Notes: generated from the sequence alone by a model not told the origin. Shown: positions 14,075-21,425, numbered from the stretch's first letter. The stretch: DNA of 64,000 bases from an uncultured Chloroflexia bacterium (GCA_963728635.1 CAVSKR010000002.1:365053-429052); one strand, 5' to 3'. Translations and numbers: made by a program.

Positions 14075-15198
14075 CGGAGCACCTCGTCGACCGGGACGGT
14101 CCGTCCGTCCGTGACGTGGCGGAGGAAAACGCGGTCGGCCCCGTCGATTGGCAACCTGCCGTCTGGCCCGAACGGCACCCAGTCCGGAGCATGCTCGAGG
14201 GCCCCGCCGGACCAAGCGGCACGGCCGACCAGCCTGCGGCCGTCGTCCGGGACCGCCAGCGCCCGCGGGTCACCCCCATCAGGCGCGACCGCGCGGAGGA
14301 CGCGACCGTCCGCACCGACCTCGTGGATGACGGCCGTTCGTCCGCTCGCGTCTCGCCCCATCACGGCCAGCCCCGACTCGTGGTGGAGGATCAACGGCGC
14401 ACCGCCATCCGGGTGGATCGACAGGAGCGGACACGGCAGCCCGCGGCACGCGCGGTGGGCGACCAGCCGGCCGTCGGCGAATCCGACGAGGTCGCCCAAT
14501 GACGGGTCGGCGACGGCCTGCCGTTCACCGGTGCCTTCGTCCAGCAGGCGGAAGCGACATGCCACCTCGCCGCAGGACTCGACGATCAGGGTCCGGCCGT
14601 CCTCCGACCACGCCAGCTCGGACCGCCAGGTCGGGCCGAAGCGCCGGTCCGGATCGATCGGAGGGAGGATGCGTGCCACAGGGCCGCGGTCGAGCGGCCT
14701 GCGCCACACGCCGAGGTCCTCCCGGGTTCGCCGATCCACCCGGACTTCCGCGATCGATCGCCCGTCCGGGCTCAGCCGTGCGTGCCGGACGACGTCGTCC
14801 GAGGTGGCGAGAGACCAGCGGCACGCGCCGGCCAGATCGAGGAGCGACAGCGTCGACGTTCGACCGTCGTCGGTGCCGACCAGGACCGTCCCGCCCTGAG
14901 GTCCGCTCGCGAACGACTCGGCGTGGAGGTCGATCCTGAAGGGTCGGTCGAGACCGGTTCGTCCGAGGATCAGGCGCTGGCCCGCCCAGACGCCATCTGT
15001 GAGGAGCGGGTCGATCCTGTACCACGCGCCGATGGGTTCCGAACCAGGTCCTGGTGGACCCGCGCACGGCGGCGGGTCCCAGGGTGGTGGGGGAGTACCG
15101 GTCGTGGTCGATGCGATCACGGCCAACGCCCCGATCGCGGCGATCCCCGGCCCGGCTCGACGGAACCAACGTGCCTCCAGCATCTCGAGGGCCTCCAC
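14071..15198 (-). CDS. Exported hypothetical protein, probable beta-propeller
   Basis: N-terminal hydrophobic segment; propeller-like RLSPDGRSI and LAWSEDGRTL repeats. Confidence 0.65.
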   Translation of the reverse strand: MEALEMLEARWFRRAGPGIAAIGALAVIASTTTGTPPPPWDPPPCAGPPGPGSEPIGAWYRIDPLLTDGVWAGQRLILGRTGLDRPFRIDLHAESFASGPQGGTVLVGTDDGRTSTLSLLDLAGACRWSLATSDDVVRHARLSPDGRSIAEVRVDRRTREDLGVWRRPLDRGPVARILPPIDPDRRFGPTWRSELAWSEDGRTLIVESCGEVACRFRLLDEGTGERQAVADPSLGDLVGFADGRLVAHRACRGLPCPLLSIHPDGGAPLILHHESGLAVMGRDASGRTAVIHEVGADGRVLRAVAPDGGDPRALAVPDDGRRLVGRAAWSGGALEHAPDWVPFGPDGRLPIDGADRVFLRHVTDGRTVPVDEVLR

Positions 15199-15320
15199 CA
15201 GCGGGCAGGGATGCGGGCGGGGGAGGGCGAGGTGGGCATGGTAGGGATGGGCGCTTCACCGCCAGTTATCTGGGACGTGCGGGCCCATGTGCTAACCTCG
15301 CGGCGACGTTCTCGTCGAAC

Positions 15321-15456
15321 GCCGCGTGGTCGCGAAGCCGGTGTAATTCCGGCACAGTCCCGCTACGGTGAACCGCCCTCGGGCGGAAGTCCGGTCGCCG
15401 ACCCCGCGGTGCATGCTCGAACCTTCGAGAGAAAGGTAGGCAGGACCGTGCACCGC
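15321..15456 (+). ncRNA. Cobalamin riboswitch (compact)
   Basis: GAAGCCGGTGTAATTCCGGCACAGTCCCGCTACGGTGAA core; closing helix CCGCG/CGCGG; P13-like stem 15406-15415/15447-15456; upstream of btuFCD-cob genes. Confidence 0.9.
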
Positions 15457-15465
15457 ATCACCTGA
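15448..15465 (+). CDS. Putative 5-codon leader ORF (MHRIT)
   Basis: GTG CAC CGC ATC ACC TGA preceded by GAAAGGTAGGCAGGA purine-rich SD-like tract. Confidence 0.5.
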   Translation: MHRIT

Positions 15466-15498
15466 CCCCTCCTTCGACCTGCTCGAAGAGAGGGGTTT
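15466..15498 (+). terminator. Terminator/attenuator-like hairpin in riboswitch leader
   Basis: CCCCTC-CTTCGA/TCGAAG-A-GAGGGG stem followed by TTT. Confidence 0.55.
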
Positions 15499-15554
15499 CG
15501 CGCGCCTGACGCGCGACCCCTCCGGTGTCCAGCCCGAAACCCGGAGGTCCGTCG

Positions 15555-16574
15555 ATGCCGACCCAGGACCGACGCCGACGCGTCGTCCTTGCCCTGATCC
15601 TGTCCGCCGTGGTCGCCGCCTGCTCGGCGCCCGGGGCGACCACGACGCCGACCCAGTCGCCTCCTGCCGCTTCGCCGTCGGCCACGCTGGCCGCGCCGCC
15701 GTCGCCGACGCCGGCGGCGGCCTTCCCGGTGACCGTCACCGATGACGAGGGCACAGCCGTCGAGATCGCCGCCGAGCCCGAGAGGATCATCTCGCTGACC
15801 CCGGCGAACACCGAGATCCTGTTCGCGATCGGCGCCGGGGATCGCGTGATCGCAACCGACGATGGCAGCGACCACCCGGAAGCGGCGGTGGCGTTACCGG
15901 ACGTCGCGACGTTCTCGACCGTCGACGTCGAGAAGGTCGTCGCCCTCGAGCCGGACCTGATCGTGGCCGGTGGGCTCGGCTTCACCCCGGCCGACGCGAT
16001 CACCCGGTTGCGGGGCCTCGCCGTCCCGGTGCTCGTCGTGTACGCCACGTCGGTCGAGGCGGTCTACGACGACATCGAGCTGATCGGGACCGCGACCGGC
16101 ACGAGCGACGAGGCGACGACCGTGACGGCCCGGATGCGCGCAGAGATCGACGCGATCAGCGCCGCCGCCGCAGGTGCGGGGACGAGGCCGCGCGTGCTCT
16201 ATGAGGTCGGCTACGACGACACGACCGGTGCGATCTATGCGCCCGCGGAAGCGTCGTTCGTCGCCGAGATGGTGACGCTCGCCGGCGCCGAGACGATCAC
16301 GACGGGCGATCCCAACACCTACGAGATGTCGCTGGAGACGTTGATCGCCAGGGACCCGCAGATCATCGTGCTGGGCACCAATCCGTTCTACGCACCGACG
16401 CCGGACGGGGTCGCGAAGCGACCTGGCTGGGACGCGATGTCGGCCGTCCGCAACGGTGACGTCCGGACGGTCCGGGACATCGAGATCACCCGTCCGGGAC
16501 CGCGCCTGCCGCTCGGGCTGCGAAACCTGGTCGCTGCCATTTGGCCCGACCTGACTTTGCCGGCAGCGTCGTAG
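15555..16574 (+). CDS. btuF: Corrinoid ABC substrate-binding lipoprotein
   Basis: VAAC lipobox, PERIISLTPANTEILFAIG, EKVVALEPDL, RPGPR; under B12 riboswitch. Confidence 0.9.
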   Translation: MPTQDRRRRVVLALILSAVVAACSAPGATTTPTQSPPAASPSATLAAPPSPTPAAAFPVTVTDDEGTAVEIAAEPERIISLTPANTEILFAIGAGDRVIATDDGSDHPEAAVALPDVATFSTVDVEKVVALEPDLIVAGGLGFTPADAITRLRGLAVPVLVVYATSVEAVYDDIELIGTATGTSDEATTVTARMRAEIDAISAAAAGAGTRPRVLYEVGYDDTTGAIYAPAEASFVAEMVTLAGAETITTGDPNTYEMSLETLIARDPQIIVLGTNPFYAPTPDGVAKRPGWDAMSAVRNGDVRTVRDIEITRPGPRLPLGLRNLVAAIWPDLTLPAAS

Positions 16575-19182: not shown

Positions 19183-19722
19183 ATGGCGACACCCTTGATC
19201 CTGGCGCTCGGCGGGACCCGCAGCGGCAAGAGCCGCTTCGGTCTCGCGACGACCCGACGGCTGGCGGGTGAGGGGCGCGCCTGGTTCCTCGGGACGGCGT
19301 GGAGTGGCGACCCTGAGCTCGACGACCGCATCCGGCGCCATCGTCTCGAGCGACCGGCGGATTGGCCCACGGTCGATGTCGGCGGCGACCTCGCGGCGGC
19401 GATCGGCTCAACGGCTCCTGCCGAGCCGATCCTCCTCGACGGCCTGACCCTGTGGCTCAGCAGATTGCTCGGTGACGACGTCCCGGCGATCGATCCGATC
19501 CTCGACGGGCCGGTCGCGGCCGCCGTCGCCGCTCTGGCGGCACGACCGGGACCTGCCATCGTCGTGAGCGACGAGGTCGGTCTTGGCATCGTCCCGATGC
19601 ACCCGAATGCGCGCGCGTACCGCGACCTCGTCGGGATCGCCCACCAGCGCCTGGCAGCGATAGCCGACGAGGTCTACCTGTTCGTCGCGGGTCTGCCGGT
19701 CACCTTGAAGGGACCGCGATGA
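19183..19722 (+). CDS. cobU: Adenosylcobinamide kinase / guanylyltransferase
   Basis: GGTRSGKS, RIRRHR, LDGLTLW, VSDEVGLGIVP. Confidence 0.93.
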   Translation: MATPLILALGGTRSGKSRFGLATTRRLAGEGRAWFLGTAWSGDPELDDRIRRHRLERPADWPTVDVGGDLAAAIGSTAPAEPILLDGLTLWLSRLLGDDVPAIDPILDGPVAAAVAALAARPGPAIVVSDEVGLGIVPMHPNARAYRDLVGIAHQRLAAIADEVYLFVAGLPVTLKGPR

Positions 19723-20835
19723 ACGCGGACGAGACTGCGCTTCGGGCGGGCATCGATGCCGTCGCAGCGCTGGGCCCGCTGGATCCGGTTGCGATGGCGG
19801 ACGCCGCGGCGATCCTCGGCGCATTGACGAAGCCGCCGGGAAGCCTCGGACGGCTCGAAGTCCTGGCCGTCCAGCTCGCCGGGATCACCTCCAGCCTTCG
19901 ACCGACCCTCCGATCGCGCGCGATCGTCGTGGCAGCAGCCGATCACGGGGTCGCCCGGCAGGGCGTGTCGGCCTATCCGGCCGAGGTGACGGCCCAGATG
20001 GTCGGGAACTTCCTGACCGGCGGTGCCGCGATCAACACGCTCGCGGCGCTGGTCGGCGCGAGCGTCACCGTGATCGACGTCGGCGTGGCTGGGTCCATCC
20101 CCGGCGCCCGCCAGGGTGGCCATGGCGCACGTCTCATCGGTGCACGCGTCCGTCCGGGCACGGCCGACATGACCGTCGCCGCGGCGATGTCACGCGCGGA
20201 TGCGCTTCGCGCGGTCGCTGTCGGCCTCGCCGCGAGTCGATCGCTTGGCGCGACCGGCGTAGACCTCATCGCGGTGGGCGAGATGGGCATCGGCAACACG
20301 ACCGCCGCCAGCGCGATCACGGCCGCGATGACCGATCTCCCCCCGGGGCGCGTCACCGGCCGTGGGACGGGGATCGATGACGAAACGCACGAGCATAAGG
20401 TCGAAATCGTCGCCCGAGCGCTGGACCGGCATCGCCCCGACGCCGCGGATCCGATCGGTGTCCTCGCCGCCGTCGGCGGGCTCGAGATCGGCGCGTTGGT
20501 CGGGATGATGATCGGCGGCGACCGCAAATCGGATCCCGGTGGTCCTCGACGGCTTCATCACGGGCGCGGCGGCACTCCTCGCCGCGGGTCTCGCTCCGTC
20601 GATCAGCGCCCGCCTGATCGCCGGCCATCGCAGCGTGGAGCCGGGGCACGCGATCGTCCTGGAGCGACTCGGCCTGCGGCCGCTGCTCGAGCTCGACCTT
20701 CGGTTGGGGGAGGGGACGGGCGCCGCTCTCGCGATCACCGTCATCGACGCGGCGATCGCCCTGCGCGACGGCATGGCGACGTTCGAATCCGCCCGAGTCT
20801 CAGGACCCGTCGAACCGATCACGCCCGACCGGTGA
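19719..20835 (+). CDS. cobT: Nicotinate-nucleotide dimethylbenzimidazole phosphoribosyltransferase (frameshift near 20520)
   Basis: LTKPPGSLGRLE, AADHGV, GEMGIGNTT, then second frame VVLDGFI...LRLGEGTGA. Confidence 0.9.
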
Positions 20836-21425
20836 CCGAGATCGTGCTCGTCCGTCACGCGGCGACGGCGTGGTCGGGCAGCCGGTACAGCGGGCGGAGC
20901 GATCCGCCGCTGTCGGAAGCCGGCCGGGAAGACGCGGCGCGGCTCGGTGCGAGGCTCGCCCCGCTCATCGGCCCCGGAACGTCGATCATCGCGAGCCCGT
21001 CGATCCGCGCGCTCGCGACCGCCCGGGCGATCGCCGCGGCAGCCGGCATCGATAGCGTCCAGACCGATGATCGCTGGCTCGAGGCCGACGTCGGCATCGC
21101 CGACGGACGAACGTTCGGCGAGCTCGCGGAGCAGGCTCCCGACCTTGCCGCGGCACTCGCCGGCGGCGCCCTCGAGGTCGACTGGCCCGGTGGTGAGACC
21201 CATCGTGCGCTGGCGGCACGGGTTGCCGACGCCTGGGACGATCTCGTCGGCCGCCGTAGCCCGGCGGTCGTCGTGACGCACGCCGGTCCGTTGATGCACG
21301 CGCTCGCGCTCGCCGAGGGGCGGCCGGCGCGAACCGACGACCTCCTGGGGCCGGCGGCATTCGTTCGCGTGCGACTCCCCGGCGAGGGGCAAACGACGGT
21401 GACCGTGCTACCCTCCCGGGCGTGA
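20832..21425 (+). CDS. cobC: Histidine phosphatase, alpha-ribazole phosphatase-like
   Basis: LVRHAATAWS, YSGRSDPPLS, GET, VVTHAG; GTGA overlap with cobT. Confidence 0.8.
   Translation: MTEIVLVRHAATAWSGSRYSGRSDPPLSEAGREDAARLGARLAPLIGPGTSIIASPSIRALATARAIAAAAGIDSVQTDDRWLEADVGIADGRTFGELAEQAPDLAAALAGGALEVDWPGGETHRALAARVADAWDDLVGRRSPAVVVTHAGPLMHALALAEGRPARTDDLLGPAAFVRVRLPGEGQTTVTVLPSRA

Follow-up and report, generated by a model that had tools for sequence, protein, structure and literature searches.

A cobalamin riboswitch proposed to control btuF through a conserved five-codon leader frame and a relay of hairpins in an uncultured Chloroflexota lineage

To our knowledge, riboswitches are usually described as acting on the terminator or ribosome binding site (RBS) belonging to the very gene they regulate, and the experimental cases in which one gates an upstream open reading frame (uORF) are few, recent (2024-2026) and all from Mycobacterium. 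Here, we analyze the leader of a btuF-like gene in a 64,000-nt stretch of DNA (CAVSKR010000002.1:365053-429052; the window, along which all positions are counted) from an uncultured Chloroflexota lineage (Limnocylindrales). This leader carries a cobalamin riboswitch, a frame of only five codons and a stop (the mini-ORF), and, between that stop and btuF, three hairpins in series, which we call T, H2 and S (Table 1).

Three groups of described systems provide the frame for reading this leader. In class-II cobalamin riboswitches such as env8HyCbl and that of E. coli btuB, a kissing loop between L5 (UCCCG) and L13 stabilizes helix P13, under which the regulated gene's own RBS is hidden (PMC10327014). 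The present element falls in the same Rfam clan and family and would use the same L5-L13 contact to stabilize an RBS-hiding P13; however, P13 lies over the RBS of the main gene only in two variants with a fused leader frame (L046 and L059), whereas 47 leaders interpose a stop codon and three hairpins. Experiments in M. tuberculosis have shown B12 and Mg riboswitches to gate the translation of uORFs (PMC11260477, PMC12810186). In the B12 switch of ppe2, what the L13 hairpin masks is the region where translation of uPPE2 starts. Expression of PPE2 depends on this uORF being translated, the coupling being chiefly termination-reinitiation at the AUGA where the two frames overlap (Kipkorir et al. 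2024, PMC11260477). As in ppe2, we are probably dealing with a class-II-type cobalamin OFF switch in which the initiation region placed at the ligand-stabilized helix is that of the uORF and not that of the main gene, the Shine-Dalgarno (SD) sequence here overlapping L13 and P13. The actinomycetotal ppe2 uORF, in contrast, is long (6.3-kDa product), partly conserved and overlaps the main start, with Rho as a possible contributor, while the frame in Chloroflexota has five codons and a peptide that is not conserved, ends about 90 nt before btuF and would be coupled to it by the proposed T/H2/S relay. The Mbox riboswitch of M. tuberculosis pe20 is likewise a translational platform acting on a small uORF, rv1805A, but the product of rv1805A is a small, conserved protein, and what follows downstream is termination by Rho (PMC12810186).

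The third group is leader-peptide translational attenuation of the ermC/cat type (summarized in PMC5118997). ermC resembles our leader in having a short leader ORF with its own SD, an OFF state pairing segments 1:2 and 3:4, an ON state pairing 2:3, the regulated SD in segment 4, and a ribosome on segment 1 as the trigger. The erm systems need drug-dependent stalling with a specific nascent peptide, and their leader ORF enters segment 1; here, unlike in erm, initiation is the proposed signal, no stalling motif is definable among some 25 peptide versions, and the ORF stops 0-4 nt before segment 1. In the literature searched, coverage of which was not exhaustive, we found no case of a riboswitch-gated mini-ORF driving a four-segment hairpin relay. 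The link between riboswitch and uORF is already known; what would be new here is the proposed coupling through such a relay.

With somewhat better than even confidence, we favor a cobalamin riboswitch of the OFF type, with translation of the five-codon ORF as its direct output and the ribosome flipping a four-segment relay that controls the btuF RBS about 90 nt downstream. Without B12, P13 would be unlocked, and the SD AGAAAGG(U)AGG would recruit a ribosome to GUG 15448. A ribosome's footprint reaches about 15 nt beyond the first base of the P-site codon. After four codons, a ribosome at UGA 15463 would have its footprint over CCCCUCCUUC (segment 1), and T could not hold. The freed GAGGGG (segment 2) would then pair with the anti-SD CCCCUC (segment 3), stacked on H2, leaving the btuF SD GGAGG (segment 4) free and btuF translated. 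With B12, a kissing loop between L5 (UCCCG) and L13 (CGAGA) would lock P13 and sequester the SD against ribosome entry, and T (1:2) and S (3:4) would form, so that btuF would be off. Translation of the mini-ORF, the partner of L5 and the ribosome as the agent masking segment 1 are the steps that we infer. The broader picture of a three-stage cascade, running from the aptamer through a ribosome at a UGA-C stop abutting a hairpin to an ermC-like relay, conserved across an uncultured Chloroflexota order and reverted at least twice by fusion, we hold at about even chances. An activating (ON) switch, as in A. halodurans cobT, was also considered for this salvage operon and set aside: every route with P13 locked ends in T and S, that is, in OFF.

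Table 1. Positions of the features of the btuF leader in the window
Feature	Position	Strand	Details
Promoter-like block	15288-15298	+	TGTGCTAACCT; extended -10-like TGnTAnnnT (inferred); TGTGCTA invariant in relatives
Cobalamin riboswitch aptamer with P13	15307-15443	+	Rfam RF01482 AdoCbl (clan CL00101); 55.9 bits, gathering threshold 50
P1, 5' strand	15320-15331	+	pairs with 15400-15411 (Rfam alignment)
P1, 3' strand	15400-15411	+	15406-15411 doubles as 5' half of the 10-bp stem
L5 loop	15358-15362	+	UCCCG; putative kissing-loop donor; invariant in 35 distinct sequences
10-bp stem	15406-15415 with 15447-15456	+	GCGGTGCATG with CGTGCACCGC; 9 Watson-Crick pairs and 1 G.U; 3' half covers GTG
P13 upper hairpin	15421-15437	+	ACCTT/AAGGT; L13 CGAGAGA (15426-15432); Rfam P13/L13 consensus CuUCGAGGcAAaG, high posterior probability
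Mini-ORF SD	15429-15440	+	GAGAAAGGTAGG; core AGAAAGG(T)AGG; partly in L13 and P13 3' strand; 7 nt before GTG
Mini-ORF	15448-15465	+	GTG-CAC-CGC-ATC-ACC-TGA (fM-H-R-I-T); GTG, 4 sense codons, stop
Hairpin T (12 bp)	15466-15495	+	segment 1 CCCCTCCTTCGA 15466-15477; segment 2 TCGAAG(A)GAGGGG 15483-15495; -18.6 kcal/mol
TTT after T	15496-15498	+	U-tract not conserved
Hairpin H2	15498-15516	+	TCGCGCG-CCTGA-CGCGCGA; -11.3 kcal/mol
Segment 3 (btuF anti-SD)	15517-15525	+	CCCCTCCGG; CCTCCGG 15519-15525 pairs with 15541-15547; 5' CCCC unpaired in OFF fold
Segment 4 (btuF SD)	15541-15547	+	CCGGAGG, holds GGAGG; 7 nt before ATG
btuF-like corrinoid-binding lipoprotein	15555-16574	+	Pfam PF01497, E = 8.5e-36; ATG at 15555

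Relatives were recovered through the BtuF protein: seven close loci, from genomes labelled Chloroflexia or Candidatus Limnocylindrales, were supplemented with 50 metagenome loci and six further contigs, giving 49 distinct leaders that could be read. BtuF identity to the window ranges from 58 to 90% among the loci scored with tblastn. Leaders were aligned using nhmmer and MAFFT, and individual tests used subsets of 35, 41 or 42 sequences. On this basis, we computed the aptamer, the conservation of the ORF, the covariation of T and H2, the conservation of S, and the energy balance between 2:3 and 3:4 pairing.

In the mini-ORF, GTG, exactly four further codons and a stop are kept in 47 of the 49 distinct leaders, with about 30 versions of the frame at the nucleotide level and about 25 at the peptide level; the remaining two leaders have in-frame fusions to btuF. 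Its 12 internal bases form the most variable stretch 5' of the T loop, enclosed by an invariant GTG and a constrained stop: column entropy is 0.0 at GTG, 0.98 over codons 2-5 and 0.46 at the stop, compared with 0.25-0.32 in the strands of T and 1.58 in its loop. The segment 15412-15441 (J1/13 to linker) is near invariant, with a mean entropy of 0.05. The stop is mostly TGA, with TAG in L036 and in the group formed by L047, L042, L044 and L062; in a rough BtuF tree, a TGA sequence (L029) falls between TAG lineages, which implies a minimum of two changes from one stop to another. Among the distinct leaders, a sense codon never occupies the stop position where hairpin S is intact. Indels are tolerated just 5' of GTG (5 or 6 nt after GGTAGGCA) and just 3' of the stop (0-4 nt before the C-run), and none falls inside the 18-nt mini-ORF across the 47 leaders; given the +1 indel 5' of GTG, the frame constraint begins at GTG itself. 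Judged by these sequence patterns, the strongly conserved mini-ORF appears to be under selection as an ORF and not as a sequence, which points to a translated frame. The claim of the original prediction that the first frame 3' of the aptamer is a five-codon ORF, and not btuF, thus extends to the relatives.

The same alignment bears on the view that the mini-ORF is incidental, with GTG and TGA kept for RNA structure (the lower P13 stem CAUG/CGUG and pairing of CCUG) and never translated. In its favor, CAUG 15412-15415 is able to pair with GTG (15448-15450) together with the C before it, codon 2 is CAN for the most part and so lengthens that helix, chance short ORFs are frequent, and all the evidence is comparative. 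Set against this, position 15413 varies (A, G, C, T) opposite a constant U15449, the TGA/TAG switch breaks the proposed pairings yet stays a stop, and the 18 nt without an indel lie between two flanks that each contain several; the two fusions would also be left unaccounted for. We therefore regard an untranslated frame as very improbable. A longer reading of the frame was also discarded: the 227-codon ORF at 14782-15465, which shares frame and stop with the mini-ORF, crosses the promoter and the aptamer, has relatives with a +1 indel before GTG, and is best seen as an artefact of high GC content.

Two further observations concern small frames in this region. A second tiny frame, ATG CTC GAA CCT TCG AGA GAA AGG TAG (15413-15439), lies in the invariant J1/13-P13 region without an upstream SD; its A15413 is replaced by G, T or C in a few relatives, and it is probably meaningless. 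At the mini-ORF stop, the context is UGA-C in 36 of 42 leaders (15463-15466 in the window and the homologous positions), and the last sense codon is Pro (CCC/CCT) in several clades. UGA-C is a poor termination context in E. coli. Speculatively, this context and a terminal Pro codon would prolong the dwell of the ribosome at the stop, which would suit a relay.

The two exceptions to the conserved frame are natural fusions of the mini-ORF to btuF (L046:1432-2544 and L059:1096-2268), which appear to have arisen independently and by different mutations. In L046, a 1-nt deletion in the stop is accompanied by the loss of about 50 nt that include the btuF anti-SD, SD and start, so that GTG reads in frame, with no intervening stop, into the BtuF signal peptide. 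In L059, TAG has become TGG and the T loop is 1 nt shorter, which puts GTG in frame with btuF (105 nt, with no stop for 390 codons). The btuF SD of this leader has decayed from GGAGG to GGACG, with a predicted 16S-tail duplex of -4.3 kcal/mol against -12.6 kcal/mol for the leader SD, and its anti-SD has decayed from CCCCTCCGAG to ACCCTTCCAAG. Aptamer, P13, SD and GTG are intact in both. The nearest relative of L059 (L062, 85% BtuF identity) has the normal relay architecture; likewise, the closest relatives of L046 have normal starts, and no further copy of the L046-type fusion was found among the protein clusters. Such variants are expected if GTG is a working start, for which the in-frame loss of the stop makes the downstream SD hairpin dispensable. 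Both resemble a return to the canonical arrangement, with P13 over the RBS of the main gene.

The aptamer itself, already recognized as a cobalamin riboswitch in the original prediction, is borne out by a match to RF01482 that covers model positions 1-149 of 149; the same model matches seven related genomes at 52-55.4 bits. The genomic context, with btuFCD-cobS-cobU-cobT/C downstream, supports the notion that this predicted aptamer binds a corrinoid and represses. Helix P1 covaries at 15325:15406, where 12 sequences have C-G and 8 have U-A. L5 is the same as the published L5 consensus, UCCCG (PMC10327014). The P13 stem is invariant, and among relatives its loop varies at 15430 only; the hairpin is weak (5 bp, -3.3 kcal/mol). 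L13 (CGAGA) can pair with L5 (UCCCG) at four of five positions around a central A.C mismatch, and kissing loops with mismatches or bulges are known, for example in env8 (PMC10327014). Because all these positions are invariant, the L5-L13 assignment comes from the model alignment and from conservation, and not from covariation. An alternative hairpin in place of P13, CTCGA/TCGAG (15416-20/15425-29), was rejected, being broken by T15417A and G15419C without compensation.

On this evidence, the likelier partner of L5 is L13 of the canonical P13 hairpin, which fits better than the GCAGGAC proposed previously. Within the window alone, pairing of L5 with GCAGGAC is as good as the L13 alternative. 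Among relatives, this motif changes to GCAAGCC, GCAACCC, GCAGAAC or GCAGTCC while L5 stays invariant; pairs break in 4-6 of 35 sequences, and no compensation was seen among them. The motif does lie at 15440-15446 as reported, whereas its intended partner GTCCCGC occupies 15357-15363 and had been placed one base off, at 15356-15362.

A P13 that hides an RBS is the canonical translational platform of class II, but the ORF behind it here has only five codons. The strong SD element on the P13 3' strand, AGAAAGGTAGG, is invariant in relatives, and AGAAAGG(T)AGG is the full complement of the CCUCCUUUCU 16S tail plus one extra U. Predicted duplexes with an assumed 16S tail, GAUCACCUCCUUUCU, amount to -12.6 kcal/mol for the mini-ORF SD and -12.9 kcal/mol for the btuF SD. 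GCAGGAC, which had also been proposed as the SD of the mini-ORF, varies in relatives and lies 2 nt from GTG, too close for that role.

The 10-bp stem over the GTG, described earlier as burying the start, exists as a helix, but its outer pairs are not conserved and it competes with the covarying P1, which speaks against a designed sequestor. All 10 pairs are present in the window and its closest relatives and 6-9 elsewhere; the inner 6-8 persist in most relatives because both strands are otherwise constrained, whereas the two outer pairs are unpaired in 24 and 16 of 35 sequences. Covariation above that of shuffles was not found in these 35 sequences, and position 15413 varies to G, C or T opposite a U15449 that never changes. 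When the nascent transcript (15307-15480) is folded, P1 has a probability of at least 0.97 and the 10-bp stem of about 0; the full-length minimum-free-energy (MFE) structure does include it. We therefore rejected the stem as a selected element, given its lack of covariation, its overlap with P1 and its absence from the nascent-transcript ensemble. It may be an OFF-state lock or a by-product of the GUGCAC palindrome, and the model does not need it.

Downstream of the stop, the hairpin reported to follow directly is real and covarying. In T, the U-A pair 15473:15487 changes to G-C and the A-U pair 15474:15486 to U-A, 94% of alignment cells are paired, and the hairpin is present in essentially all relatives. 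T is probably not a terminator. The T-run that follows it measures 1 nt in 23 of 41 relatives and at least 3 nt in 12 of 41, the window has only three U, and a scan for consensus terminators found none. This separates two parts of the earlier reasoning: that B12 blocks leader translation and that absence of the ribosome lets an inhibitory hairpin form remains the best-supported logic, whereas the identification of that hairpin as a transcription terminator, and of the whole as a transcription attenuator, is not supported, the U-tract not being conserved. A riboswitch-gated attenuator with T as terminator draws on features of the window, namely the 6/7 complementarity of GCAGGAC to L5, the 10-bp stem, which appears in the full-length MFE structure, and T followed by TTT, together with the 12 of 41 relatives that have at least three U after T. 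Terminators with short U-tracts have been discussed for high-GC bacteria. We nevertheless give it very little credence: GCAGGAC varies without compensation and sits 2 nt from GTG, the outer pairs of the stem are lost in many sequences (24/35 and 16/35) and it is a rival of the covarying P1, a single U follows T in 23 of 41 relatives, the terminator scan was negative, and H2 begins inside the would-be U-tract.

It is more likely that T represents segments 1:2 of an ermC-like four-segment relay composed of T, H2 and the SD-sequestering hairpin S. A hairpin occupies the H2 position in all relatives, differing in sequence and length. S corresponds to the helix over the btuF SD foreseen by the original prediction (CCTCCGG 15519-15525 with CCGGAGG 15541-15547; -12.5 kcal/mol); its CCGGAG[G/A] is conserved in relatives, L046 and L059 being the only leaders in which it has decayed or been deleted. 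The series T-H2-S is predicted in nearly all relatives. The design is repetitive, with GACCCCTCC occurring at 15464 and 15515 and the partners GAGGGG and GGAGG following the same scheme. Pairing of CCCCTC with GAGGGG 15490-15495, stacked on H2, yields -22.9 kcal/mol, compared with -23.8 kcal/mol for H2 plus S, so the two conformers are close in energy. Once segment 1 is taken away, 36 of 41 relatives have an SD-free conformer (2:3 plus H2) that is no less stable than H2 plus S (median -2.9 kcal/mol). A free segment 1 tips the balance to OFF by about the energy of T (-18.6 kcal/mol), and an outside agent is thus needed for ON.

To represent that agent, we placed a ribosome mask with its P site on codon 5, spanning GTG-3 to GTG+27. 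In 41 of 42 relatives, opening the btuF initiation region costs less energy under the mask, the median falling from 11.75 to 7.75 kcal/mol (Wilcoxon p = 2e-8). The unpaired probability of the SD with and without the mask was uninformative, because the freed SD takes weak alternative partners; opening energies and the two-conformer comparison were used instead. Because only 0-4 nt separate the stop from the C-run, CCCCUC would in every case lie under a terminating ribosome. The mini-ORF stop (15463-15465) is separated from the btuF ATG (15555) by 89 nt and three hairpins, and thus does not show the stop/start overlap of termination-reinitiation.

The same distance matters for the proposal that ribosomes act here without melting T, either by loading or standing by at the SD and GTG, or because translation of the mini-ORF blocks Rho termination in a C-rich leader. 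The S. meliloti metA SAM-II riboswitch offers a precedent for standby, since an SD inside that riboswitch is needed for a start 74 nt downstream with a terminator hairpin between (PMC9373788). The likeness to our leader lies in the SD within the riboswitch and the main ORF tens of nt downstream, past stable hairpins; metA differs in its ligand and aptamer and in having AUG1 and AUG2 in frame, with standby proposed and no five-codon ORF or relay described. For the Rho version, riboswitch-controlled uORFs of M. tuberculosis are tied to Rho-dependent termination (PMC11260477, PMC12810186), and the leader is indeed rich in C. T, H2 and S, however, place about -42 kcal/mol of structure in total between the stop and the btuF start, and the near-abutment of stop and T (0-4 nt), as well as the repeats that make segment 1 equal to segment 3 and segment 2 similar to segment 4, are explained by a relay and not by sliding or Rho. 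Both forms of this proposal seem improbable to us.

A more serious contender, although still an unlikely one, is a relay made of RNA only, to which translation of the mini-ORF is irrelevant. Without B12, the P13 3' side and linker (AAGG-AGG-CAGG, 15433-15444) would form an anti-T helix with CCUG (15461-15464) and CCUCCUU (15468-15474), so that segment 1 is held, GAGGGG takes the anti-SD and the btuF SD is free; with B12, the kissing loop would lock P13, the anti-T helix would be blocked, and T and S would form. The SD-like AGAAAGGUAGG would then merely mirror complementarity to the anti-SD-like segment 1. The P. megaterium metE corrinoid riboswitch, in which the P13 3' side can pair as an antiterminator with the 5' side of the next hairpin (PMC10327014), sets a precedent, although metE is transcriptional, has a true terminator and is backed by mutational proof, whereas here the U-tract is not conserved and compensatory change is absent. 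The nascent transcript (15307-15480) has the anti-T helix in its MFE structure; across relatives, 92% of the cells of this helix are paired, and its duplex reaches -9 to -15 kcal/mol in all of them. No compensatory change was found in it: for C15472G and U15473G/A, the compensating substitutions lie in T and never on the P13 side, 5-10 of 35 sequences have lost pairing in the CAGG:CCUG part, and C15441:G15464 is disrupted in the TAG variants. T (-18.6 kcal/mol) is also far more stable than anti-T (about -10 kcal/mol), which leaves the latter a kinetic window only; such a window would fit a decision at a terminator, but T has no conserved U-tract. Finally, the RNA-only relay leaves unexplained the invariant GTG, the in-frame TGA or TAG stop, the fixed 18 nt beside indel-tolerant flanks, and the two fusions.

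Several points weigh against the ribosome-driven relay that we favor. On the side of initiation, the mini-ORF SD is taken up in the predicted ligand-free folds by the anti-T helix (AAGG.AGGCAGG with CCUG/CCUCCUU), the opening energy of the mini-ORF initiation region (15429-15463) is high, at 16.3 kcal/mol, and the window's 10-bp stem could bury GUG if P1 frays. The organism is uncultured, translation of the mini-ORF is a prediction from comparative data, and the SD duplexes were computed with an assumed 16S 3' tail. Invariance of P13, of L13 and of the putative L5-L13 contact means that they give no evidence of covariation, and the contact includes the central A.C mismatch. In the relay, the 2:3 pairing is without covariation because both strands are constrained by other partners, and under the ribosome mask S still wins the MFE in some relatives (L006, L029, L047). 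Each fusion is represented by a single metagenome-assembled contig, and L059 keeps the old GTG start, at which SD-independent initiation is possible. Every sequence compared belongs to one lineage.

Some records among the relatives merit separate mention. P0142 (375 aa, on a 342-kb contig of a metagenome-assembled genome, MAG) has the BtuF N-terminus swapped for an out-of-frame translation starting inside hairpin T (MSKRGVCDS...), owing to a frameshift that arose in assembly or in gene calling; indels in these MAGs, those of the fusion variants included, consequently need caution. L006 (DATNFQ010000079.1) is titled 'Patescibacteria group bacterium', while its btuF is 68% identical and its entire leader is that of the Limnocylindrales/Chloroflexia family; the title is probably a binning or labelling error. 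In L062 (400-470), the aptamer P4/L4 has GCCGTGAAAAACGGC in place of GCCGGTGAGATCCCGGC, a shortened T-loop region that could be a true variant or an assembly error.

In terms of protein families, the operon downstream of the leader runs btuF (Peripla_BP_2), FecCD permease, ABC ATPase, CobS, CobU and a CobT-phosphatase fusion (cobT/cobC). This btuFCD-cobS-cobU-cobT/C array is a corrinoid uptake and salvage operon, a classic target of a B12 OFF switch. Its last gene (19719-21425) joins CobT (DBI_PRT phosphoribosyltransferase) to a His_Phos_1 phosphatase (CobC-like); with this fusion, CobS and CobU in the operon, the riboswitch would control uptake and nucleotide-loop assembly alike. As a whole, the 276-nt leader folds better than 200 of 200 shuffles (z = -3.45). 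The promoter-like block TGTGCTAACCT is placed to begin a transcript just 5' of P1; a sigma-70 consensus scan called no promoter at 15288-15298. A wider block upstream of the aptamer (15255-15300) is also kept in relatives, in the form CAGTTATCTGG ... TGTGCTA[A/C].

The leader also contains internal repeats. TGCTCGAA occurs twice (15414-15421 and 15480-15487), as does CCTTCGA (15422-15428 and 15471-15477), such that J1/13 and the P13 5' strand correspond to the halves of hairpin T with their order exchanged; there are three copies of GACCCC, at 15400, 15464 and 15515. No covariation of P13 with hairpin T was detected in relatives. These repeats could be a relic of duplication or have a role in further alternative pairings.

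If the proposed mechanism is true, uORF gating by riboswitches would extend to a distant, uncultured phylum, where it would be coupled to the main gene by a hairpin relay set by a terminating ribosome and not by reinitiation or Rho, and riboswitch control would be joined with leader-peptide translational attenuation. For a five-codon ORF, the comparative data are unusually clean, with fixed frame, length, start and stop, free codons and two natural fusions, and offer a good test case for calling tiny regulatory ORFs from the sequence alone; platforms in high-GC genomes that have been annotated as 'terminators' would merit re-examination for such frames. The arrangement, in which the aptamer would set initiation and the relay would amplify it, would also provide a compact modular part for synthetic biology.

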